The translations under genes and the position numbers were made by a program. Shown here piece by piece: positions 1,593 to 28,122 of a stretch of DNA of 44,923 nt (the stretch's first letter is position 1; every line of letters starts with the position of its first letter). The notes under the pieces were generated by a model. That model worked only from the letters and a program-made list of their open reading frames with translations. It searched no databases and was not told the origin of the DNA. This DNA is from Patescibacteria group bacterium (lineage in GTDB: Bacteria > Patescibacteriota > Minisyncoccia > Phycocordibacterales > Phycocordibacteraceae), in NCBI GenBank assembly GCA_004296925.1, contig SCVI01000037.1, positions 1 to 44,923 on the forward strand, read 5' to 3'.

Positions 1593-2999
1593 ATGCAGTC
1601 GCCACCCACAACGCTCATAATCTTTGGAGCTACCGGCGACCTCACGGTACGCAAAATCATACCGTCTCTCTATTTCCTTTTTGAAAATTCTCGTCTCCCT
1701 GCGAATTTCAGTGTCATTGGTGTTTCAAGACGCGACATGTCGGGTAACGCATTTCGTGATTTTGTTGCCGGAGTACTTACTAATTCATCACGTGGGAATT
1801 TAGATTACAGAAGTTTGGATCGTTTTCTCGATATTTTTACGTACAGCAAAGTTGAGTTCCAAGAAGAGGCAGGTTACCAAGAACTCGCGCGAACTCTCGA
1901 CATGCGTGATCGTTCTCACGGAAAAACAAACCGACTTCTCTATATGGCAGTTCCTCCCACTATCTTCCCTACCATCTTTGCGCACAGCGGTTTCAAAAAA
2001 ATTATTGAAGGTGGCTCAGTGGGAGGACTCCTCGCAAGAGTCATAGTTGAAAAACCATTTGGTGAAGATGCCGCGTCTGCACAATCGCTCGAGCAATTAC
2101 TCTCCACTTGTTTTACAGAAGATCAAATTTACAGAGTCGATCATTACTTAGCAAAAGATATTCTCCAACAAATTGTTGACTTTCGTTTCGCAAATAATCT
2201 TTTCGAAGAAAGTTGGGACAAAGACGCTATCGAATCTGTTCACATTCGTTTATGGGAAACATTAGGAATTGAAAAACGAGGAAATTTTTACGATAAGATA
2301 GGGACGTTCAAAGACGTAGGTCAGAATCATATGCTGGAAATGCTTGCTCTTGCCACTATGGATGCACCAAAAAGCTTCGATGCTCAAGACTTGAGAGCAG
2401 AAAGAATTAAAGTGCTTCAAAAACTTCGACCTCCTCAGGAAAAAGACATGGCAACTCATGCATTTCGTGCGCAACATGAAGGATATAGATCTATTGAGGG
2501 CGTAGACCCAAACTCAACTACAGAAACATACTTTGCTGTTCGAGCAGAGATTGACTCTCCTCGATGGAGCGGGGTTTCTATTTTTTTAGAATCTGGAAAA
2601 CGTATGCATGAGGCACGGAAAGAAATTATTGTTACGTTTAAAAAACCATTTCAAAACACCATCACCTTTCGCATCGAACCACGCGAAGAAATGATAATTG
2701 AGTTTATGTCAAAGAAGCGAGGAATCTTTGAGGAAGGTAGAAAGAAACGGGAGTTTCGGTTTTCTCTTCACGAAATGGATGCAGGAAAGCAGTACCTAGC
2801 AGAGTACGGAAAAATGATTATTGAGGCAATTGAAGGTGATCAAAAGCTTTTCTTAAATAAAGAAGAAGTAGCTGCCGCGTGGCATTTTACCGACCCTATT
2901 ATAAATGCTTGGAAAAAGAACCTCGTCCCCCTTGCTTCGTACGTTCCCGGAAGTGACGAAGCAATCCATTCTTTTACTCAAAACCCAAATATGCTTTAA
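1593..2999 (+). CDS. zwf: glucose-6-phosphate 1-dehydrogenase
   Basis: 468 aa. It has the N-terminal IFGATGDL dinucleotide-binding motif, EKPFG, and RVDHYLAKD (a variant of the G6PD RIDHYLGKE active-site motif). Confidence 0.95.
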   Translation: MQSPPTTLIIFGATGDLTVRKIIPSLYFLFENSRLPANFSVIGVSRRDMSGNAFRDFVAGVLTNSSRGNLDYRSLDRFLDIFTYSKVEFQEEAGYQELARTLDMRDRSHGKTNRLLYMAVPPTIFPTIFAHSGFKKIIEGGSVGGLLARVIVEKPFGEDAASAQSLEQLLSTCFTEDQIYRVDHYLAKDILQQIVDFRFANNLFEESWDKDAIESVHIRLWETLGIEKRGNFYDKIGTFKDVGQNHMLEMLALATMDAPKSFDAQDLRAERIKVLQKLRPPQEKDMATHAFRAQHEGYRSIEGVDPNSTTETYFAVRAEIDSPRWSGVSIFLESGKRMHEARKEIIVTFKKPFQNTITFRIEPREEMIIEFMSKKRGIFEEGRKKREFRFSLHEMDAGKQYLAEYGKMIIEAIEGDQKLFLNKEEVAAAWHFTDPIINAWKKNLVPLASYVPGSDEAIHSFTQNPNML

Positions 3000-3960: not shown

Positions 3961-4127
3961 TATTGCTTTGTTCGTTCGGTTCTAATCTCACCAATAATTA
4001 CTCTTATAAGATCCCTGGCGCTTTCAACTGGACGAGGTTTGCCTTCCAAATGCCTCATAGGAAGCACATCTCTGAGTTCTTGTTCTAAATCTGAAAGAGT
4101 TGGCGTAGGGCGAACCTCAAATGCCAT
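3960..4127 (-). CDS. small hypothetical protein (55 aa), below the ORF-track cutoff
   Basis: Hand translation: MAFEVRPTPTLSDLEQELRDVLPMRHLEGKPRPVESARDLIRVIIGEIRTERTKQ. The ATG is 5 nt after the rpsP TAA. The stop abuts the base of the 3936-3960 terminator, so the ORF exactly fills the gap. Confidence 0.35.
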   Translation of the reverse strand: MAFEVRPTPTLSDLEQELRDVLPMRHLEGKPRPVESARDLIRVIIGEIRTERTKQ

Positions 4128-18596: not shown

Positions 18597-20342
18597 ATGT
18601 CTGAAAACGAACTACTAGAACATAAGCGACACACTCTAGCCCATCTTCTTGCGGCGGCAGTTATGAAGTTGTGGCCAGACACTAAGCGAACTATCGGTCC
18701 CGCAATTGACAATGGTTTTTATTTTGACTTTGAATTTACGCATCCACTCTCTGAGAAAGATTTTGGAAAAATTGAAAAAGAAATGCGAAAACTCTTGCCG
18801 ACGTGGACTTCGTTTGAGCGAAGTGAGCTAACTTCTGATGAAGCTAAAAAAGAGTATCCAAATAACCAATACAAACACGAACTCATTGACGAATTTACTG
18901 CTGACGGCTCAAAGGTAAGTTTCTACAAATCAGGAGAATATTCGGACCTTTGCCGTGGTGGACACGTAGAAAATCCTAAAGAAGAAATTGCGTCAGATTC
19001 CTTTAAGCTAGACAGGATCGCAGGAGCTTACTGGAGGGGCGACGAGAAAAACCCAATGCTGACTCGCATTTATGCACTCGCTTTCGATACAAAAGAAGAA
19101 TTGGATCAGTATATTGCAATGCAGGAAGAAGCGCTCAAACGTGATCATAGAAAACTTGGAAAGGAACTTGATCTCTTCACATTCTCAGATCTTGTAGGTT
19201 CTGGACTTCCCTTGTTTACACCCAAAGGAACCGTGCTTCGCGAAGAAATACACACATTCTCACAAGCATTGAGAACTTCGAGAGGATTCCAAAAAGTATG
19301 GATCCCCCACATAACGAAAACCGATCTATATAAACGTTCGGGACATTGGGACAAATTCGGAGATGAATTATTTCTCGTCAAAAGCCAAGAGACGACTGAC
19401 GAGTTTGTATTGAAACCAATGAACTGTCCACATCATACTCAAATATACGCAGGCAAAAATCGCAGCTATCGCGACCTCCCTCTTCGTTTTCTTGAAACTA
19501 CTGCAGTGTATCGTGATGAAAAAAAAGGAGAGCTTTCAGGACTTTCTCGAGTACGATCCATAACGCAGGACGATAGCCATGTGTTTTGTCGACCAGACCA
19601 GATTGAAGTGGAGTATCAAGCAATCATGAATATGGTTGTGGAATTCTATAAAGTTGTGGATATGAAATTCCGAGCTCGCCTTTCTTTCCGCGATTCACAA
19701 ACTCCTGAAAAATATTTTGGAGAGGAATCGCTCTGGGATATGGCTCAAGAAAAACTTGAAACTATCGCAAAAAGTGGCGGATTCGAATATTTTATTGCTA
19801 AAGGTGAAGCCGCATTCTACGGACCAAAAATTGATTTCATGGCAACAGACGCACTTGGACGTGAACACCAACTTGCAACAGCACAGTTAGATTTCGTTCA
19901 GCCTGCGCGTTTTGAACTTACATATACCGATAGTGATGGAACAGAAAAAACTCCCGTCATGATTCACCTTGCTATTGCAGGTTCACTTGAACGATTTCTG
20001 TCGGTGTATATAGAGCATACTGCTGGCGCCTTCCCGCTTTGGGTTGCACCAGTTCAAGTAAAAATACTTCCTGTTTCAGAAAAGCATAATGAATATGGAG
20101 CTTCTGTTTTTGCTACGCTCAAAAATGCTGGTATTCGTGTTGAGATTGATGATGCGAACGAATCCCTCGGAAAGAAAATCAGAAATGCCAAAAAAGAAAA
20201 AATTCCTTACCTCTTTGTAATTGGAGATAAGGAAGTAGAAGCTGGAACTGTATCGGTAGAAAACAGAGATGGTTCAGAAGGAGCGCAGGAACTTTCAGTA
20301 ATTGTAAAATCTCTGCAAGAAAAAATTATTGCCCGTTCCTAA
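18597..20342 (+). CDS. thrS: threonyl-tRNA synthetase lacking the N-terminal TGS domain
   Basis: 581 aa. It begins in the editing/second additional domain (RHTLAHLLAAAV). Class II core motifs are present (FRDE.., RVRSITQDDSHVF, GPKIDF) along with a C-terminal anticodon-binding domain. Confidence 0.95.
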   Translation: MSENELLEHKRHTLAHLLAAAVMKLWPDTKRTIGPAIDNGFYFDFEFTHPLSEKDFGKIEKEMRKLLPTWTSFERSELTSDEAKKEYPNNQYKHELIDEFTADGSKVSFYKSGEYSDLCRGGHVENPKEEIASDSFKLDRIAGAYWRGDEKNPMLTRIYALAFDTKEELDQYIAMQEEALKRDHRKLGKELDLFTFSDLVGSGLPLFTPKGTVLREEIHTFSQALRTSRGFQKVWIPHITKTDLYKRSGHWDKFGDELFLVKSQETTDEFVLKPMNCPHHTQIYAGKNRSYRDLPLRFLETTAVYRDEKKGELSGLSRVRSITQDDSHVFCRPDQIEVEYQAIMNMVVEFYKVVDMKFRARLSFRDSQTPEKYFGEESLWDMAQEKLETIAKSGGFEYFIAKGEAAFYGPKIDFMATDALGREHQLATAQLDFVQPARFELTYTDSDGTEKTPVMIHLAIAGSLERFLSVYIEHTAGAFPLWVAPVQVKILPVSEKHNEYGASVFATLKNAGIRVEIDDANESLGKKIRNAKKEKIPYLFVIGDKEVEAGTVSVENRDGSEGAQELSVIVKSLQEKIIARS

Positions 20343-20547
20343 TCTTTGCTAGGAGAATATCGCCCTCATTTTTAATCTCTTCCCTGTCTTCAATTCTTAA
20401 ATTTGGACTATTAATGAGTCGGCCTGCTGCGTTAATTCTCTCAACAATGTCGGGTGAGCTTGGGTTTTCTATAATACCCAAAAAAGCACGTCTTACTCTT
20501 TCAAGAAAAGTAGGATAATCTTCTTCAAGTAGTGATTCTTTACTCAT
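20326..20547 (-). CDS. hypothetical protein (73 aa)
   Basis: A strong SD (GGAGG) lies 4 nt upstream of the ATG, which is rare in this window. The ORF overlaps the thrS 3' end convergently by 17 nt. No family recognised. Confidence 0.6.
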   Translation of the reverse strand: MSKESLLEEDYPTFLERVRRAFLGIIENPSSPDIVERINAAGRLINSPNLRIEDREEIKNEGDILLAKIRNGQ

Positions 20548-20699
20548 ACAACCTCCGGCACGTCTTGATGCTTTAAAACAATTTCAGTATTTTTGAATAA
20601 TAGCGACACTGCGGAATAACTGCAAATATAGACAATGACACCAAATCACTCTCAATACAGTTCGCGTAACTCTCAAAAACACCAACGATACAGTGCACA

Positions 20700-20745
20700 C
20701 ACGGTCTAGTATAATTATGCTATAGCATAATTATACTAGACCGTG
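20700..20745. repeat. 46-bp perfect palindrome (23-bp arms, no spacer)
   Basis: CACGGTCTAGTATAATTATGCTA|TAGCATAATTATACTAGACCGTG. I checked every one of the 23 base pairs by hand and the symmetry breaks at 20699/20746. It contains TATAAT on both strands. Confidence 0.9.
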
Positions 20746-20791
20746 AAGAAGTATAGTTTATTGAACGCGGCGTTATACAGACACTAGCTAA

Positions 20792-23700
20792 TCAGCCAAC
20801 TACTTCAAATGCTTGAGCAAGAGCGAGCTTTACACCAGTAAATGGTGAGCTATAGACAGCGTCGAGCGAATGAGTGAACACTGTTACCAATCGAGCGAGC
20901 TCGTCGTCAGTTATCTTCTTTGCCGCTTCGGCAAGCTCTAGGTCTGACGGTGTTTTATTATCATGACGTGCTCTGTAAAGAGTATCCAAGACGGTTGCGG
21001 TTGAGGTCATTAATGATGTTGGACGAACGCCATCATGTTCAAGTGAGCGTATTATGCTGAACGCAGATGTTCTGTCGCCCTTAAGTACCGCCTTAGCAAA
21101 CGCGCTTGCTACGGTATCGTCTATCGTAAATTCTTTTACTTGTGGCAATACCTCTGAAATTGAGATTGTATCTTCTTTAGAAGAAGTTACTTTCTTAGGA
21201 TTCTTGTCTACAAGTTGACTAAAGCGCTCTGCAGTAAGCATGATCCAACCGTTTTCACGAGGAATAGTTCTTACCGCTTCGTTCAAAATTTCTCCAAAGA
21301 ATAAGAGGGTCTCTGCTCTGTCTGACGAATATTCAGACGCGAGCAATACAGATTCAGGAGACATTAATACTCCTGATGCGTGAGCACGAGATTCAATTAC
21401 ATCAGCAATCGCTGGAATACCGTCGACAGCTTTCACAGCAGCTACTGAAATATCTGCTTGTCTTGCAATCGGCTCAGTTTTTATAGCCAAAGGAGCTGGA
21501 GTAATAGTAAGTGGTGTAAGAGTTTCGGTTTCGTATCGAGGAGCAACACTTGCATCATTTTGCGAGAAATCATCTCCATGCGACACAGTAGATGGATACG
21601 ATGTACCGTACATGTGTTCGCGTGTTCTTGAGTGATTACCTGAATTGTTATTATTTGCTACAGGGAGGTTGTTGAAACGCGAATATAGATATCGTATTCC
21701 TCCTCTGCCAGCTATAGCGTACGCAATAATTGCAGCAAAAAGTCCTATAGCGAGCCAGAACAAGACCGTAAGAACAGGGCCAGCAGCAAAACCAGTGTAA
21801 GGAATTTGTGCTAACGAGACGAACGCCAATGGTTGGTTGATAGGTTGTTTGTAGAGCACTACATTTGGTGGATTGTATCCCCCACCACAATTACTCGTAC
21901 ATCCAGCAGTACCTACAGTAACCGTTGCAGAACAATTCACCGTCCCCGAAGGACCTGTAAATGTTCCAGTAAACGTAGTGTCTGATGAAGGGAATACTTC
22001 AGCGGATCCAGACGATACTGGTGAAACAGCGCCAACTCCACCAGTAATTGTTCCTGATGTTGCGTTTACTGATGTCCACGACACATTAATACTTTGTCCT
22101 GATGTGATTGATGTTCTTGAAAGCGAGATGGTACATGCAGGTCCTGATGGTGGTACGACTGTAACTATTGTTTGGCATGTTGCAGTATCACCGAAAGAAT
22201 TGGTAACCGTCATCGTGTAAGTGCGTGTACTTGGAACAGATACCGCAGTAGATCCTGATGCAATTGGAGTAATGGCACCAACAGAATGATTGATGGTCGC
22301 AGAAACAGCGTTTGTGGTTGTCCAAGAAAGCGCTGATGCATCTCCAGCTAACACCGATGAAGGATTTGCTGAAAGTACGCATGAAGGAGTTGGGTTTGGA
22401 GTCACCGTAACTGTAGAACCACACAATACGCTACCTCCCGGACCTGTTGCAGTCAGACTGTAGGTATGAGTTCCTACACCCAAGTGTGGTGAAAAATTAT
22501 ATGAACCAGAAAGTGCGAGTGGTGTTGGAATTGCCGGCGACGCAGTAGTAGGTGTGATAGTTATAGAAGTCGCATTGGTGGTAGTCCACGAAATTGAAGA
22601 TTTAGAAAGATCGAGTGAACACACTGGCACAGAGCTTGTGGTTACAGTTATAGTTTTCTCACATGTGACGGTCCCACCTGCGCCGGTGGCGGTGAGTGTA
22701 TATGTTTTAGTAACAGAAGGCGCCACAATAATTGCACCGTTCGCAACCGAAACTGTCCCAACTCCCTGATTTATTGAAATCGTACTAGCATTTGTTGTAG
22801 TCCATGCCAATGTGGATGAACCTCCAGGAGAGATAGTTGAAGGTGTTGCGGTTAACGTACAGCTTGGAGCAGATGGTAGTGGATCAACGTGAATTGTTCC
22901 CTGACAAATAACAGAACCGCCAGCGCCTGTTGCAGTAAGAGTATAGGAATGAGTACCAACACTGAGAACTGGGCTAAACGCGTAACTACCATTCAAACCT
23001 GGAGACGGAACTGTTGGTGAACCCGTGGTTGAAACAATGGTAACTGAAGAAGTGTTTGTAGTAGCCCATGAAATGTTCGTTGCAGAAAAATCAAGGGTAC
23101 ACACTGGCACTGGTGGTGGTGTGACAGTTATACCTTGCGCACAAGTTACGGTGCCGCCAGGACCTGTTGCTGTAAGTGTGTACACTTTCGAACTAGTAGG
23201 AGAAACAGATGTTGAACCGTTTGCGGTTACTCCACCAATGCCTTGGTTAATACTTACCGATGAAGTGTTTGTGGTCGTCCAAGAAAGTGTTGAAGAACCT
23301 CCAGTGGTAATCGCAGTTGGATTAGCTGAGAGCGTACATGTTGGAGCAGGTTGCGGTGTAATTGTTACCGTAACAGCACAAAGCACGCTACCACCAGGAC
23401 CTGTTGCAGTAAGGTTATAGGAATGAGTTCCTGAACCGAGCTGAGGCACGAAATTATATGAACCTGAAAGCGCTTGAGGAGAAGGGATAGCTGGTGAACC
23501 TGTTGGAGAAATAATCGTAACTGACGTTGCGTTTACAGTACTCCAAATCAATGTGTCTTTAGAAAGATCTGCGGAACACACTGGTGTTGGTGGTGGAGTA
23601 ACAACAACTGTTTTCTGACAAACAACACCGCCGTATGCTCCATTTCCAGTAAGTTTATATGTAGTAGTTACTGAAGGTGACACCACCTTGGTACCTATAG

Positions 23701-24076
23701 TTGGAACACTACCAATACCATTATCGATAGATGCGCTAGAAACAAATGCCATACTCCAACTCAGCGTTACCGATTCACCTTGATTGATAGTGCTGCCAGG
23801 TAGAGCCTCTAGAGTACATGAAGGAGTTGGGTCGTAACCGCCGCCACCGCCGCCACCGTCAAGATTTGGGTGGTACAGATCATTATTGAAACCACCGCCA
23901 CCAAACCAAATTGTGACATTGCCACAACCACCGCAACTAGCAGATGCATCCGCAGAAATAGAGGAGTCGTTAAATGAGACCGATGCGACGTCGAGTGTTA
24001 CCCATGCTGCTCCTACAAAAAGAGCGACGAAGGCGATGCTCAAGAATGCTGTTTTTTTAATAGTTTGGAATTTCAT
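20792..24076 (-). CDS. giant surface protein: signal/TM anchor, eight Cys-bracketed Ig-like repeats, IPYTG motif, TM helix, 304-aa cytoplasmic domain
   Basis: 1094 aa. The N-terminal hydrophobic segment is AFLSIAFVALFVGAAWV. Repeat modules span residues ~87-715. VSLAQIPYTG is followed by the helix FAAGPVLTVLFWLAIGLFAAIIAYAIAG and RGG. The C-terminal third is non-repetitive. Confidence 0.85.
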   Translation of the reverse strand: MKFQTIKKTAFLSIAFVALFVGAAWVTLDVASVSFNDSSISADASASCGGCGNVTIWFGGGGFNNDLYHPNLDGGGGGGGYDPTPSCTLEALPGSTINQGESVTLSWSMAFVSSASIDNGIGSVPTIGTKVVSPSVTTTYKLTGNGAYGGVVCQKTVVVTPPPTPVCSADLSKDTLIWSTVNATSVTIISPTGSPAIPSPQALSGSYNFVPQLGSGTHSYNLTATGPGGSVLCAVTVTITPQPAPTCTLSANPTAITTGGSSTLSWTTTNTSSVSINQGIGGVTANGSTSVSPTSSKVYTLTATGPGGTVTCAQGITVTPPPVPVCTLDFSATNISWATTNTSSVTIVSTTGSPTVPSPGLNGSYAFSPVLSVGTHSYTLTATGAGGSVICQGTIHVDPLPSAPSCTLTATPSTISPGGSSTLAWTTTNASTISINQGVGTVSVANGAIIVAPSVTKTYTLTATGAGGTVTCEKTITVTTSSVPVCSLDLSKSSISWTTTNATSITITPTTASPAIPTPLALSGSYNFSPHLGVGTHTYSLTATGPGGSVLCGSTVTVTPNPTPSCVLSANPSSVLAGDASALSWTTTNAVSATINHSVGAITPIASGSTAVSVPSTRTYTMTVTNSFGDTATCQTIVTVVPPSGPACTISLSRTSITSGQSINVSWTSVNATSGTITGGVGAVSPVSSGSAEVFPSSDTTFTGTFTGPSGTVNCSATVTVGTAGCTSNCGGGYNPPNVVLYKQPINQPLAFVSLAQIPYTGFAAGPVLTVLFWLAIGLFAAIIAYAIAGRGGIRYLYSRFNNLPVANNNNSGNHSRTREHMYGTSYPSTVSHGDDFSQNDASVAPRYETETLTPLTITPAPLAIKTEPIARQADISVAAVKAVDGIPAIADVIESRAHASGVLMSPESVLLASEYSSDRAETLLFFGEILNEAVRTIPRENGWIMLTAERFSQLVDKNPKKVTSSKEDTISISEVLPQVKEFTIDDTVASAFAKAVLKGDRTSAFSIIRSLEHDGVRPTSLMTSTATVLDTLYRARHDNKTPSDLELAEAAKKITDDELARLVTVFTHSLDAVYSSPFTGVKLALAQAFEVVG
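21899..23821 (-). repeat. in-frame coding tandem array (alternating A/B modules, ~480-bp super-period)
   Basis: Related DNA strings recur, for example GGACCTGTTGCAGT at 22440 and 23397, with a variant at 22923. The protein modules repeat with conserved Cys pairs. Confidence 0.8.
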
Positions 24077-24083
24077 AAATATA

Positions 24084-24806
24084 TTATTGGGTCAATGGTT
24101 CTTCGTATAAAAATTCTGCATGCACCACATATCGTTTCGTTTTCTCCTTACCGAATGAATCGCAGGTAACAAGAGTAAGTGTTTGCGCGCCACCACCAAT
24201 TTCAATTGATGCGGTATCAACGTCAACGTAATCAATCGACACTGCGCGGTAATGATAACGGATTGTCTGTGAAGAAACGATGATAGCGTCACCAGGACGA
24301 ACATTTTGTAGACCGTTAAAGGCTTTAAATGCCTGATTGCGAACAACCGGCAAATAACTTTGATGACCAAAAATAAACATCCCTGAATTCTCACCTAAGA
24401 GTGCTGAACCAGGGTAACGAACCGCCCCCTTAAGAAGGGCGGTATCGAGAGATGTAATATCTTTTTGAGTTGGATTATTCACCGAAATATCGATACCAAC
24501 TTTTGGAATAACGATTCGTTGCGGCATATTTGCTACTGATTGAGAAGCAGTGTAGGTGGTCTCTGCTCGTGTGAGAGACGTGTTTGTTGTAGGCTCTGAT
24601 GCAAGTGGCGCTGAAGCGCTTAGTGTAACCGTAGATGCATTTGCCACATTTGTATTTTGAGCTGTAGAAGATTCAGGAACAAAATCAATCACAAAAAGAA
24701 CTACCGCGATGACAAAAAATGTAATCAAAAAAACAACCAAGAATGCCCACGGCTTTGTGCTTACTGCGTGATTTTTGAATTGGTGCTTAAGCATGATTCT
24801 TTTCAT
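24084..24806 (-). CDS. sortase-family transpeptidase
   Basis: 240 aa. It has an N-terminal TM anchor (WAFLVVFLITFFVIAVVLFVI), a catalytic His context FIFGH, a Cys context LTLVTC (TLxTC) and a downstream Arg (KRYVVHAEF). It ends 7 nt upstream of the giant protein gene. Confidence 0.85.
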   Translation of the reverse strand: MKRIMLKHQFKNHAVSTKPWAFLVVFLITFFVIAVVLFVIDFVPESSTAQNTNVANASTVTLSASAPLASEPTTNTSLTRAETTYTASQSVANMPQRIVIPKVGIDISVNNPTQKDITSLDTALLKGAVRYPGSALLGENSGMFIFGHQSYLPVVRNQAFKAFNGLQNVRPGDAIIVSSQTIRYHYRAVSIDYVDVDTASIEIGGGAQTLTLVTCDSFGKEKTKRYVVHAEFLYEEPLTQ

Positions 24807-24839: not shown

Positions 24840-26888
24840 TTATTGTCTTGCTGGAACTGCAGAAGGCAGGTCTTCCCTTCTCACTCTTAACACGTCTGGT
24901 ACACCGTTATTGTTGGTATCAACTAGCACAAGCGGGATAGTTGGATCTTCTGGATTTACAACGTTTCCAGGACCATTAATAAGTTCTTGCCACTGAGCCT
25001 CACTTCTTACCTGTATACTTCTACCGCTTGGAGATTCTATATACGGATGTGAGAAATGTCCCGCTCTGTGACCGCCCGGCGTGTTTTCAATACTCATACA
25101 CCAATACGAAGTTCTGCCTGTCACAGGATCTGTGTAGGTCATAAGTACAAAACGAAGTTCTGGTGGAATATTTCCTTGGTAATTTGGAATAAGAATACTT
25201 TCAGTGCCACGGCGGTCTTCACCTAAAATAAGGTCACGCACTCGTTCTTGTGCCTCTGCCAATGACATACCTCGTTCATCAAAAATCAAGTATGCGTTCG
25301 TTGGTACATCGCACGATCCTCCTCCTGGACGAGGGACACAGATAATTGGTTCGCGTCTAAGATACACCTCTGTAGGTGGACGTGGTGGTGGCACTACCTC
25401 AACAGGTGGCGGCACTACGACTACACTTTCTGCTGGAGGCGGAGTAGGTCGTAAAATAATCTCATCGCCCACCTGCATAAAGTTATTACACTCATCAGCT
25501 CGAAGAATTGTGATGCGATGAAGTACGCCCTCTGAGTCTTCAGCAGTAAAATAAAATCGTTCAGCAGGATACGTCACGATCGCAGTACGAGCTCCTGGAA
25601 CCGAAACGCGAGAAGTATCGAGAAGGAAATCTTTTTCACCAACACCAAGAACGCTTCTGTTACCACCTAACATCCATTCACCGCTCTGACGTGGTCCTAT
25701 TTGGATCATCTCAGGATTTGCTATACCTCTTTGTGCATAAAGTGCAGCAATGAATTCGTCTCTAAACTCTGGTCGCATACCACCCCTGACAGCACCGTCA
25801 GCAGCACTTTGAATGTGCGCATCATCAAATGCTTCAATGCGAGAATTTGCGAATGGCTCGCTGCCGAGTCGAGAAACTACATCCGGTTCGCTTTCGATTT
25901 GAGACGCCGCATTTTCAGCAGTATCGGCTGGCGATACAAAGTATCGTCTTCCTTCTATCTCACCTTGCGTGTTAAATCCACGAGAATTAGATCCTGATGA
26001 ATATTCCGATTCAGAAGGAACAATGAATGTGTGCGTACCATCTGACGTTACAGGTAACTCAGCTGCCATAGCATTCTTAACTCCAAAAAATTCTTCAACA
26101 ATTTTACCTCCTGCACCGTCTATAAGAAACGAGTTCCCAACAGCGTTGCGAATACCTAAATCGTTTACAATCTCAGTTGCAACACTGTGCCCGAGTGTGG
26201 CACCAGCACCAATACCAAGCGCACCACTCACTGCAAGTCGCGCATATCTCCCATTTCGTATTTCTACATAGCGCGATTTAAGAAGATTCCAATTGTTCTT
26301 TTCAAACTCTTGAAGTGATTGTCCTTCCTCGCGTGCTTGTGCTTCGAGTACTTTTGAGTCCGCGATTTTTTGGTCTGCTCCGCGATTATTAAAATACCCA
26401 ATTATTTTTCCAAGTTTTCTTGGAGCCTTTTTTCCAAGTGCGAGTTGGACACCGATACCTACTACAGCACCTACCGCAAATTTAACAGGCCCAACAACAG
26501 CAGCTACGGTTGGCACAGCAACCGCATATTTTTGCGCGTGCTCAACCATACCAAGCTTTCCTGACCATGCACCCAAAAGGCCTTCCTCACTAATCTTAAA
26601 CTCTGCTGCTGCATCCCATCCGGCAGTCTCAAAAAGAAAATTTCTATAATTTTGAAAAGCGTCATCGTAACGAGCACGAGAAGCGTCGATGTTTTCGTTA
26701 GCTGAGCGTAACCCTGACCAACCACGAGGGCGAGCATATTCTACCCGCGCATCCCAAAGAAGTTTTCCAAGCGCTTTTCTTCGAGTGTCACGAATGGAAG
26801 CAGACTTGTCACGAAAATCTTTTTTAGGAAGTGTTTCGTCTGAAGACAATGCTCTTTGTATTGGGTTTTCAGCTAAATTTGTTGCCAT
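24840..26888 (-). CDS. orphan 682-aa membrane protein (first gene of the sortase operon)
   Basis: The long ORF has no competing frame. There is no N-terminal signal peptide. Two internal hydrophobic segments are present (AVAVPTVAAVVGPVKFAVGAVVGIGVQLAL and LAVSGALGIGAGATLG), plus a Pro-rich spacer PTPPPAESVVVVPPPVEVVPPPRPP. No family recognised. Confidence 0.75.
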   Translation of the reverse strand: MATNLAENPIQRALSSDETLPKKDFRDKSASIRDTRRKALGKLLWDARVEYARPRGWSGLRSANENIDASRARYDDAFQNYRNFLFETAGWDAAAEFKISEEGLLGAWSGKLGMVEHAQKYAVAVPTVAAVVGPVKFAVGAVVGIGVQLALGKKAPRKLGKIIGYFNNRGADQKIADSKVLEAQAREEGQSLQEFEKNNWNLLKSRYVEIRNGRYARLAVSGALGIGAGATLGHSVATEIVNDLGIRNAVGNSFLIDGAGGKIVEEFFGVKNAMAAELPVTSDGTHTFIVPSESEYSSGSNSRGFNTQGEIEGRRYFVSPADTAENAASQIESEPDVVSRLGSEPFANSRIEAFDDAHIQSAADGAVRGGMRPEFRDEFIAALYAQRGIANPEMIQIGPRQSGEWMLGGNRSVLGVGEKDFLLDTSRVSVPGARTAIVTYPAERFYFTAEDSEGVLHRITILRADECNNFMQVGDEIILRPTPPPAESVVVVPPPVEVVPPPRPPTEVYLRREPIICVPRPGGGSCDVPTNAYLIFDERGMSLAEAQERVRDLILGEDRRGTESILIPNYQGNIPPELRFVLMTYTDPVTGRTSYWCMSIENTPGGHRAGHFSHPYIESPSGRSIQVRSEAQWQELINGPGNVVNPEDPTIPLVLVDTNNNGVPDVLRVRREDLPSAVPARQ

Positions 26889-27072: not shown

Positions 27073-28122
27073 ATGCAAAATGAACAGAACAAGTCCCCTT
27101 TTGGTAATGCTATCGTACGTACGCTCGCAATCTTCGGATTTCTCGCGGTCGTTATCGTTGGTATGTGGGGTAGCGTACAAATCGCACGTGGAATTCCAAA
27201 CGCTTTTTCATCACTTGCCTCTGCAATGGTGAGCTTTACTTCTATCTTTGTCCCAGCAGGAGAGACCATCTCGCTTTCTGCTGCTTCACTCAGCGTTGAA
27301 TCAAATAAGCCAATTACTATCTCTTGGTTCCACGATAAGAAGAGCGTAGAAGGTTCATATGTATTTCGATACAATTGTGTGAATGACGCATACTTTGCAT
27401 CTGCCGTTGCGACCGGAACACCTACTACTGTTTACTGTAACGTGCCGTTCAACTTCATTAATTCAAGCAACTCAATAACGATCACACCAATTTCAACCTC
27501 AAATCGTTTTATTGACGTACAGGTATTCATCGACTTTATTCCAAATGGTGCATCTCAAGCAACGGTCACAGGTCAAACCACTTTCACTATAGTAAATACA
27601 GGAGTAACGGTAAGTCCAGGAACTATTCCTACAACACCAGTACCTACAACACCAACTCCTACAACACCACGTCCTATAACTCAAGGACCTGAAACACGAG
27701 TCACCTACCCTATTGGTGGTGCGCGCGCATCAGATCCAAACGGTTATGTAGACCTTTCTGCACGTGTTATTGAAGTTGGAGTAGTAGATAAAACAACAGG
27801 CGTATTTACAGCAAGTTCTACTCCAAGTAGAGCAAACACACGCATCGCAGTGCGATTCGCAGTTGAAAACCTCGGTACAAAAACATCACCACAGTTTGAT
27901 TTCAACGCGATTCTTCCAACACAACCATCAAACATATTCTCAGCACCTATGCAGCAAGCCCTCAATCCTGGCGACCGTATTGAATTCACCGTTGGTTTTG
28001 ACAGCTTTAATTCAGCTAATCCAGACGGAGTATTCATCATAAATGTTGATCCTTCAAACCGCATCAACGAGAGAAACAAAGACAACAATATTGTGAGATA
28101 CACAATCAATACAAGACCGTAA
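27073..28122 (+). CDS. membrane-anchored secreted protein with C-terminal CARDB-like domain
   Basis: 349 aa. It has an N-terminal TM/signal anchor (LAIFGFLAVVIVGMWG), a PTTPVPTTPTPTTPRP linker, and a C-terminal ~120 aa reading DLSARVIEVG...AVENLG...LNPGD...NVDPSNRINERNKDNN, which matches the CARDB pattern. Confidence 0.75.
   Translation: MQNEQNKSPFGNAIVRTLAIFGFLAVVIVGMWGSVQIARGIPNAFSSLASAMVSFTSIFVPAGETISLSAASLSVESNKPITISWFHDKKSVEGSYVFRYNCVNDAYFASAVATGTPTTVYCNVPFNFINSSNSITITPISTSNRFIDVQVFIDFIPNGASQATVTGQTTFTIVNTGVTVSPGTIPTTPVPTTPTPTTPRPITQGPETRVTYPIGGARASDPNGYVDLSARVIEVGVVDKTTGVFTASSTPSRANTRIAVRFAVENLGTKTSPQFDFNAILPTQPSNIFSAPMQQALNPGDRIEFTVGFDSFNSANPDGVFIINVDPSNRINERNKDNNIVRYTINTRP
27628..27672 (+). 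repeat. 15-bp x3 in-frame tandem repeat (CCTACAACACCA-nnn) encoding (PTTPx)3
   Basis: cct aca aca cca gta / cct aca aca cca act / cct aca aca cca cgt, read directly from the sequence. Confidence 0.7.

Follow-up and report, generated by a model that had tools for sequence, protein, structure and literature searches.

The window analyzed here covers positions 1 to 44,923 of contig SCVI01000037.1 from the Patescibacteria assembly GCA_004296925.1, and its element of interest is a gene for a 1094-residue membrane protein, called the substrate below, which lies next to a sortase gene on the same strand. The two genes are proposed to be, probably, a dedicated and operon-encoded sortase/substrate pair of Paceibacteria-type Patescibacteria in which the sorting signal joins two modules, an ectodomain and a cytoplasmic tail. 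Cleavage of the signal between T761 and G762 is considered likely. A sorting function was favored over a juxtamembrane element unrelated to sorting because of the adjacent sortase with its intact catalytic triad, the joint loss of sortase and of the P, T, and G of the motif in some relatives, and the canonical or short-tailed versions in others. The central features are as follows.

20792..24076, minus strand: substrate gene, 1094 aa, type I membrane protein, GenBank TAJ14789.1 ("hypothetical protein")
24084..24806, minus strand: sortase gene, 240 aa, matches to PF04203 and TIGR01076
21776..21820, minus strand: extended sorting motif, residues 753-767, VSLAQIPYTGFAAGP, VSLAQ-IPYTG-FAAGP
21791-21805, minus strand: IPYTG core, residues 758-762, with the predicted scissile bond T761|G762
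21707..21775, minus strand: transmembrane helix, residues 768-790, VLTVLFWLAIGLFAAIIAYAIAG, assigned by hydropathy and followed by R791

Proposed sorting motif and transmembrane helix

The coordinates given in a preliminary description of this DNA for the open reading frame (ORF), motif, helix, and 304-residue tail were found to be correct on rereading the window. The spacer from TG to the helix is 5 residues, the helix is 23 residues long and is the sole internal hydrophobic helix of the substrate, and Arg follows it immediately. RGG and a further 301 residues make up the tail (residues 791-1094, nt 20795-21706). The candidate peptide recognized by the sortase is SLAQIPYTGFAAGP. The pentapeptide alone was judged insignificant and not diagnostic, since ~1.8 xPxTG pentapeptides are expected per protein of the substrate's T/G/P-rich composition and a second one, SPFTG, is present at residues 1077-1081 (nt 20846-20860, minus strand). 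Among the xPxTG pentapeptides of the 45-kb window, IPYTG alone stands just ahead of a hydrophobic helix in a long ORF, and its position, its conservation, and its linkage to a sortase are far beyond chance.

The family was collected in two ways. Thirteen homologues, with motif, helix, and tail kept where covered, came from a word-indexed search with residues 740-1094, and an exhaustive profile search with the conserved 212-residue domain of the tail gave 551 cluster representatives (50% identity) at E ≤1e-3 and 342 at ≤1e-10. The domain was always C-terminal among the profile-search matches, and the family is unannotated, with no Pfam or NCBIfam model. The combination of xPxTG and helix was found in 126/156 family sequences examined. 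The other 30 were short (≤367 aa), and the 10 of these that were inspected proved to be N-terminally truncated fragments, save two of different architecture. Conservation of all three elements (motif, helix, and C-terminal domain), on which the first reading had been made to depend, was thereby confirmed among the homologues.

From 147 distinct sequences the consensus was L(99%)-x-Q(90%)-[VI]-P-Y(98%)-T-G-F(99%)-x-A(94%)-G(90%)-P(80%), in which the invariance of P, T, and G is built into the search expression. P, T, and G were also present in every full-length member found via the tail alone, and the motif occurred in 39/39 ORFs retrieved by the C-terminal domain alone. The pentapeptides of 126 proteins were VPYTG (69), IPYTG (52), LPYTG (2), IPHTG (2), and IPETG (1), so that only position 1 (V, I, or L) and position 3 (Y, in a few cases H or E) vary; these are the tolerant positions of LPXTG. 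Helix columns were conserved in the same 147 sequences at T770 (89%), F773 (95%), W774 (92%), A785 (74%), and Y786 (92%), and family position +23, which is A781 in the window protein, was S in 75%.

Family members carry on average 0.24 K/R ahead of the helix, compared with 2.5 in the 23 residues that follow it. This distribution obeys the positive-inside rule and hence points to a cytoplasmic tail. Further support came from the Cys residues, 20/20 of which are in the ectodomain and 0 in the tail, and from orthologues described below that form an N-in hairpin. On these grounds the 304 residues are assigned from sequence to the cytoplasm, in agreement with the intracellular location first claimed for them.

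The sortase and its linkage to the substrate

The stop codon of the sortase gene is 7 nt before the ATG of the substrate gene. The claim that a sortase is encoded at this position was upheld, as ORF 24084..24806 (minus strand) matched PF04203 with an E value of 1.3e-18 (67.4 bits against a cut-off of 26.6) and TIGR01076 with 40.8 bits against 39.35. The catalytic residues and a further conserved element were located as follows.

24363-24365, minus strand: catalytic His148
24162-24164, minus strand: catalytic Cys215, in TLVTC
24132-24134, minus strand: catalytic Arg225
24672-24686, minus strand: juxtamembrane D41-F-x-P44-E45, residues 41-45, at the end of the N-terminal membrane anchor

The His/Cys/Arg triad was kept in 32-34 of 34 sortase orthologues and D-F-x-P-E in 31-34 of 34. 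The latter, together with the conserved residues of the substrate helix, suggests that enzyme and substrate may recognize each other through their helices or juxtamembrane segments. The models for the individual sortase classes A-F and GN all scored far below their cut-offs (class E 42.4, C 39.9, D 33.6, and GN 31.5 bits against 158-165; SrtD 39.5 bits against 140), and the nearest solved relative was the class C sortase 8t28 (E 6e-7).

When a genome collection was scanned with the tail alignment, 36 loci were recovered, every one of them in a metagenome-assembled genome of Patescibacteria labelled Paceibacterota, Kaiserbacteria, Parcubacteria, or "Saccharibacteria." With L001 (a duplicate of L014), L002, and the window, 39 loci were available; they are phylogenetically related, and the counts given here are not independent events. 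A sortase gene was found upstream on the same strand, usually directly adjacent, in 34/34 loci with upstream sequence, and the 5 loci without a sortase match are cut within the substrate gene. No other protein with an xPxTG-type motif and a helix near its C terminus was found within the 10-20 kb neighborhoods of these loci, and it is within these neighborhoods that one substrate per sortase is meant. The linkage was also seen in metagenomes scanned for the back-translated motif Q[VIM]PYTGFEAGP, a search that is independent of the tail and gave 120 loci, 112 of them informative. Of the 65 motif-scan loci that extend 900 nt or more upstream of the gene, 56 have a sortase there. The nine misses comprised one threshold artefact, seven loci with <1.7 kb of upstream sequence, and one real absence (L118).

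Natural architecture series

The most informative relatives were ten orthologues of 339-394 aa without an ectodomain (P0153, P0144, P0157-P0164). They have the same linker and the same tail, composed of the lid and collar subdomains described in the next section, and their short basic N terminus and extra helix correspond to an N-in hairpin. The register of the conserved helix is kept (W, S seven residues on, and Y five further). As aligned, these proteins also retain the flanking L, Q, and G, with other residues in place of P and T and a deletion at the G of the pentapeptide. No sortase was found with 4/4 distinct hairpin members (six loci, L039-L044), where the best E value of a sortase hidden Markov model was 0.08. 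These genes occupy the same site as the window gene, with gyrB, a small divergent CARDB-like gene, the family gene, and convergent thrS and dnaE.

The opposite variation was observed among the 112 informative loci of the motif scan. A full lid and collar tail of ~260-390 residues was in frame in 91. In 13 the tail ended after the lid, 139-184 residues after the motif (L051, L056, L082, L085, L102, L107, L114, L118, L129, L131, L148, L149, and L158). Another 4 (L053, L070, L104, and L120) had a 62-residue tail and no domain anywhere in the locus, and the remaining 4 had the domain in another frame. The tail variants that were checked were also flanked by thrS/dnaE, with thrS immediately after the gene, and the examples inspected have a sortase upstream. 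As judged from these sequences, the cytoplasmic tail is evolutionarily modular.

In three of the out-of-frame loci a run of nine A residues (A9) stands directly after the transmembrane helix: L064 (nt ~4115-4123), L077, and L106. Their contigs, Ga0163144_10036240, Ga0164241_10009721, and JACCDV010381369.1, come from three projects and represent three species-level sequences. Frame 0 of these loci reads ...VIKKK(R/V)S-stop, a textbook ending of a sorting signal, and the -1 frame, which is equivalent to one extra A, reads KKKAFLGF... into the linker and domain. In L082 the A9 run is in frame. The A9 loci could reflect transcriptional slippage or -1 frameshifting that would give two isoforms, or else a homopolymer assembly error.

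Across the series the ectodomain with PYTG and the sortase appear and disappear together, the helix and module exist without them, and the signal exists without the module. This behavior is consistent with a genuine sortase signal between two separable functional units, and a motif without a role in sorting would not easily account for it. The reading of IPYTG as a sorting signal, one of the two that were offered initially, gained support from the adjacency of the sortase, from the loss of P, T, and G with it, and from the occurrence of the signal on short tails. The other, a conserved juxtamembrane element, stands in part, as the conservation of the helix appears to serve the cytoplasmic module; its claim that the motif is unrelated to sorting is disfavored.

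Cytoplasmic tail and its predicted clamp-loader-like fold

The tail was divided into the following segments.

21410..21706, minus strand: basic cluster and linker, residues 791-889, of variable length, poorly conserved, with many indels and no Cys
21203..21409, minus strand: subdomain 1, residues 890-958, small alpha/beta, resembling in predicted fold the AAA+ lid (clamp-loader domain II)
21119..21202, minus strand: disordered insert, residues 959-986, predicted local distance difference test score (pLDDT) <50
20798..21118, minus strand: subdomain 2, residues 987-1093, six-helix bundle, resembling in predicted fold the clamp-loader collar (domain III)

The tail had been described at first as helical and nonrepetitive. 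This holds for the two folded subdomains, which are mostly helical, and does not hold for the linker, which contributes ~100 poorly conserved residues. Conservation in the tail is highest in subdomain 1 (E..AH..G.L.SPE...PREDGW..L...R; pLDDT ~94-98), subdomain 2 was modeled with pLDDT 92-98, and the insert between them ranges from ~15 to >150 residues among relatives. SPFTG, which lies at the start of the last collar helix, is conserved as PFTG[VL]K in closer relatives and not in distant ones. The AF2 models cover the 212-residue conserved region and leave out the linker; mean pLDDT was 80.5 with 12 aligned sequences and 89.7, with both subdomains >92, with 28 more diverse ones.

For both models the top 40 Foldseek matches in the PDB were all bacterial clamp-loader subunits (best E 3e-5), drawn from E. 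coli (gamma, delta, and delta') and B. subtilis (delta, 3zh9). The next matches were eukaryotic RFC subunits, with E. coli MgsA lower down for the first model. The alignments cover ~210 columns of targets of 330-375 residues, which corresponds to domain II plus domain III, and the TM-score to the query was 0.37-0.48, limited by the flexible insert. Sequence matches in the same direction were obtained below cut-off: TIGR01128 holA to residues 972-1050 of the window protein (E 0.006), PF12169 DNA_pol3_gamma3 (gamma/tau domain III) in 4/28 members scanned singly (best E 9e-4), and PF21694 (delta C-terminal domain) in 2/28 members. Profile searches of PDB sequences with the tail returned noise only (patatin, sorting nexin, and proteasome; E ≥0.09). 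The predicted tail module is clamp-loader-like at the level of the fold, and these models make its homology to the clamp-loader lid and collar probable.

The module shares with domains II-III of DnaX, HolA, and HolB the predicted fold, the lid-then-collar order, and the weak family matches listed above. Nevertheless, the substrate protein is not a clamp-loader subunit, as it lacks AAA+ domain I, is tethered to the membrane through the ~100-residue linker, and has a disordered insert of variable length between lid and collar; lid-only versions also exist. Nothing upstream of the lid aligns with domain I, for which the transmembrane helix, linker, and tail leave no room, and no P-loop/SRC clamp-loader gene is encoded in the loci examined. 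The proximity of dnaE and thrS was considered and rejected as evidence of a functional link or of a role in replication, since these genes are convergent with the substrate gene, on the opposite strand, and the gyrB...thrS-dnaE order is backbone synteny in all variants.

Proposed mechanism and alternatives

In the proposed mechanism the precursor would be exported via its Sec-type signal and cut between T761 and G762 by the membrane-anchored sortase. By analogy, the enzyme would then transfer the ectodomain to a nucleophile of the wall, for which lipid II or peptidoglycan is presumed. A 333-residue remnant comprising GFAAGP, the helix, the linker, and the lid-collar module would stay in the membrane. 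Since this remnant has the architecture of the free-standing orthologue of sortase-less relatives, it is deduced to carry a cytoplasmic function of its own, and the suggestion made in the preliminary description that the remnant could be functional in its own right is supported by those orthologues. The function would most plausibly be protein-protein interaction or oligomerization at the membrane. In clamp loaders the collar forms the oligomerization ring and the lid contacts partners, and because of these roles the module is suggested, with low confidence, to be a cytoplasmic interaction or oligomerization scaffold. A single precursor would give 1:1 production of the two parts and would place the stalk where the cytoplasmic module sits.

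Several observations weigh against this interpretation. The signal is not at or near the C terminus, as 304 residues follow the helix. The sortase fits none of classes A-F, and one locus that bears the motif, L118, lacks a sortase in the 3.6 kb upstream. The resemblance to clamp loaders consists of predicted structure and subthreshold sequence matches, with the PDB profile searches negative. Finally, conservation exceeds what a sortase would need (L-3, Q-1, F+5, A+7, and G+8; T/F/W/S/A/Y in the helix), and since much of this extra conservation persists in the sortase-less orthologues, that part of it is taken to serve the membrane or cytoplasmic module rather than sorting.

The first and last of these points would suit a permanent, uncleaved bitopic protein in which the stalk is coupled mechanically or allosterically to the cytoplasmic module, with PYTG and the helix having a structural role and the sortase acting on substrates encoded elsewhere or only docking without turnover. 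Conservation at the motif and in the helix is indeed far stronger than in ordinary sorting signals, and SPFTG at residues 1077-1081 demonstrates that a P-x-T-G can be conserved for structure. This joint reading is nevertheless considered unlikely. P, T, and G are precisely what is lost without a sortase, whereas the flanks remain, and a sortase is adjacent to 34/34 motif-bearing genes but to 0/4 distinct hairpin proteins. Moreover, the same signal carries canonical short basic tails in some relatives, and no alternative substrate is encoded nearby.

Cleavage at T|G could instead be performed by a polymerizing, class C-like sortase that joins the ectodomains to each other or to the 682-aa protein encoded upstream, giving a fiber with an uncleaved, tail-bearing copy as its membrane base. 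The weak similarity to class C (8t28) and the chain of Ig-like repeats, as in pilins, are compatible with such a fiber, as is the conserved 600-870-aa protein encoded just upstream of the sortase in closer relatives. That protein, however, is missing from more distant loci that keep the pair. Furthermore, the class C NCBIfam model gave 39.9 bits (cut-off 160), the ectodomain, inspected visually, showed no pilin motif of the YPKN type and contains only 11 K+R, and each locus has one sortase and one substrate. A polymerizing sortase is thus judged distinctly improbable.

A further extension of the proposed mechanism, to which even less weight is given, is that sortase cleavage acts as an ectodomain-shedding switch that alters the state of the membrane-tethered lid-collar module. 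Anchoring of the stalk, or its failure, would free the module for oligomerization, for contact with partners in replication or the cell cycle, or for release by a further protease, and in the A9 subclade slippage would set the ratio of plain wall-anchored to switch-bearing protein. Such slippage would echo the recoding of dnaX into gamma and tau. As in ectodomain shedding and regulated intramembrane proteolysis (RsiW/RseA, Notch-type), the cut would leave a membrane stub with ~6 external residues on a cytoplasmic domain. The differences are that no second protease is linked here, a PrsW gene being found beside one locus only, and that the protein is oriented as type I (N-out), which is unusual for site-2 proteases.

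The last alternative, that the long ORF is an artefact in which a sequencing or assembly frameshift fused a substrate gene to the gene of a cytoplasmic protein, could draw on the different frames of the two parts at the A9 run in three metagenome contigs, yet it is effectively refuted by the in-frame fusion in independent assemblies (the window, 39/39 genome-derived ORFs, 126 database proteins, and 91+13 of the 112 loci found independently of the tail) and by the lack of a homopolymer at the window junction.

Comparison with known systems

Sorting signals consist of a motif, a helix, and a basic cluster at or near the C terminus, and the geometry in the window matches this tripartite signal (PMC12445088; 10.1101/2023.06.07.544157). 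Of the sorting-signal features considered, the pentapeptide, helix, basic residues, and secretion signal were found and the C-terminal location was not. In common with the canonical LPXTG/sortase A system (S. aureus protein A), the pair has a signal peptide, [LIV]PxTG ~5 residues before a helix, basic residues, and a membrane-anchored sortase with a His/Cys(TLxTC)/Arg triad. It differs in the 304 residues, including a conserved folded domain, that follow the basic residues, in the near-invariant extended motif LxQ[VI]PYTGFxAGP, in the conserved helix residues, and in the unclassed sortase.

Dedicated pairs are known in SrtB-IsdC and in the class GN "marine" sortase with its single target. In the survey by Haft, dedicated one-to-one systems were recognized by consecutive genes for enzyme and target (10.1101/2023.06.07.544157). 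The same arrangement is seen here, with the sortase present at 34/34 genome loci, 56/65 metagenome loci, and 0/4 distinct orthologues without an ectodomain; the co-occurrence across lineages and the variant, highly conserved signature motif are further likenesses. Described targets of such systems, in contrast, end shortly after the basic cluster, and none is reported with a cytoplasmic domain. A literature search found no sortase substrate with a cytoplasmic domain and no account of this family.

The only precedent for a functional post-cleavage remnant found in the literature search was the C-peptide of S. gordonii, which is cited in PMC11326707 as a remnant of sortase cleavage sensed by a two-component kinase (the SGO_1180 system). 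The likeness is an active membrane remnant rather than waste, and the difference is that a ~30-residue peptide is sensed there by a separate kinase, whereas here a remnant of 333 residues would carry a folded module.

LPXTG-type signals and their analogues are by definition small, tripartite, and C-terminal, and they are thrown away once cut. If the proposed reading is true, this would be the first family in which the "discarded" part of a sorting signal is a conserved, folded cytoplasmic protein, and the sortase would be a protein-splitting enzyme with two functional products on opposite sides of the membrane. To our knowledge, no sortase substrate of Patescibacteria has been characterized. 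More than half of Patescibacteria encode sortases (PMC6744442). The family is widespread in this group and offers a concrete substrate motif for an unclassified sortase clade, as well as a setting in which the predicted lid/collar fold is new, tethered to the membrane and with no ATPase. The variants found at the one locus (full tail, lid only, no domain, split by a frameshift, and no ectodomain) constitute a natural set of domain deletions. Were the shedding switch true, it would give these ultra-small episymbionts a link from the state of the envelope, or of contact with a host, to the interior of the cell.

Secretion signal and ectodomain

The N-terminal part of the substrate comprises the following features.

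23978..24076, minus strand: signal peptide or signal anchor, residues 1-33, MKFQTIKKTAFLSIAFVALFVGAAW..., read from the sequence
21932..23818, minus strand: ectodomain of eight ~80-aa repeats, LSWTTTNA.S...TYTLTATG.GG...C
21821..21931, minus strand: Cys-x3-Cys/GGG knot and spacer, residues 716-752, ...GCTSNCGGGYNPPNVVLYKQPINQPLAF

A basic n-region followed by a hydrophobic stretch was read at the N terminus of the substrate, and likewise in homologues with a complete 5' end; it looks like a Sec-type signal. Each ectodomain repeat has one Cys pair, 65-68 residues apart, and the linkers are 14-15 residues long. The ectodomain is presumed to be a disulfide-bonded, Ig-like stalk. The number of repeats varies widely among homologues, with total lengths of ~600 to 1630 aa. 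The repeats are preceded by CxxC and followed by the CxxxC-GGG knot, the region of which has the conserved pattern GC..NCGGG.N.PNV in close homologues. No Pfam or NCBIfam family reached its cut-off on the whole substrate, and a match to ComP_DUS was dismissed as noise.

Neighboring genes

The substrate gene is separated from the convergent thrS gene by a 450-nt gap (20343-20791), unusually long for a compact genome. Its sole ORF (20326-20547, 73 aa) was rejected as a gene since it is not conserved. No tRNA or Rfam element was found near the substrate gene or in the gap, and a scan for promoters and terminators gave no excess over the shuffled expectation.

In locus L118 (Ga0209475_10000026) a metalloprotease of the PrsW family (PF13367, E 3e-24) is encoded at nt 1824-2537 (minus strand), ~1.1 kb upstream and on the other strand from the family gene. 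A PrsW protease as a conserved partner was rejected, as it was found at 1 locus only among the loci examined.

The protein encoded 33 nt upstream of the sortase (24840-26888, minus strand; 682 aa) matched no family; it contains a Pro-rich segment and, near residues 120-160, a hydrophobic stretch. Its homologues were found upstream of the sortase only in closer relatives (L003-L008, L015, L023, and L025), from which it was concluded that it is not a constant member of the sortase/substrate pair. Beyond it, at 27073-28122 (plus strand), a divergently oriented gene encodes a CARDB-domain protein (E 7.5e-8) of 349 aa with a membrane anchor. A shorter CARDB homologue (E 4e-9) is found at the same position even in the sortase-less hairpin loci, and it is therefore regarded as a stable neighbor of the family gene.

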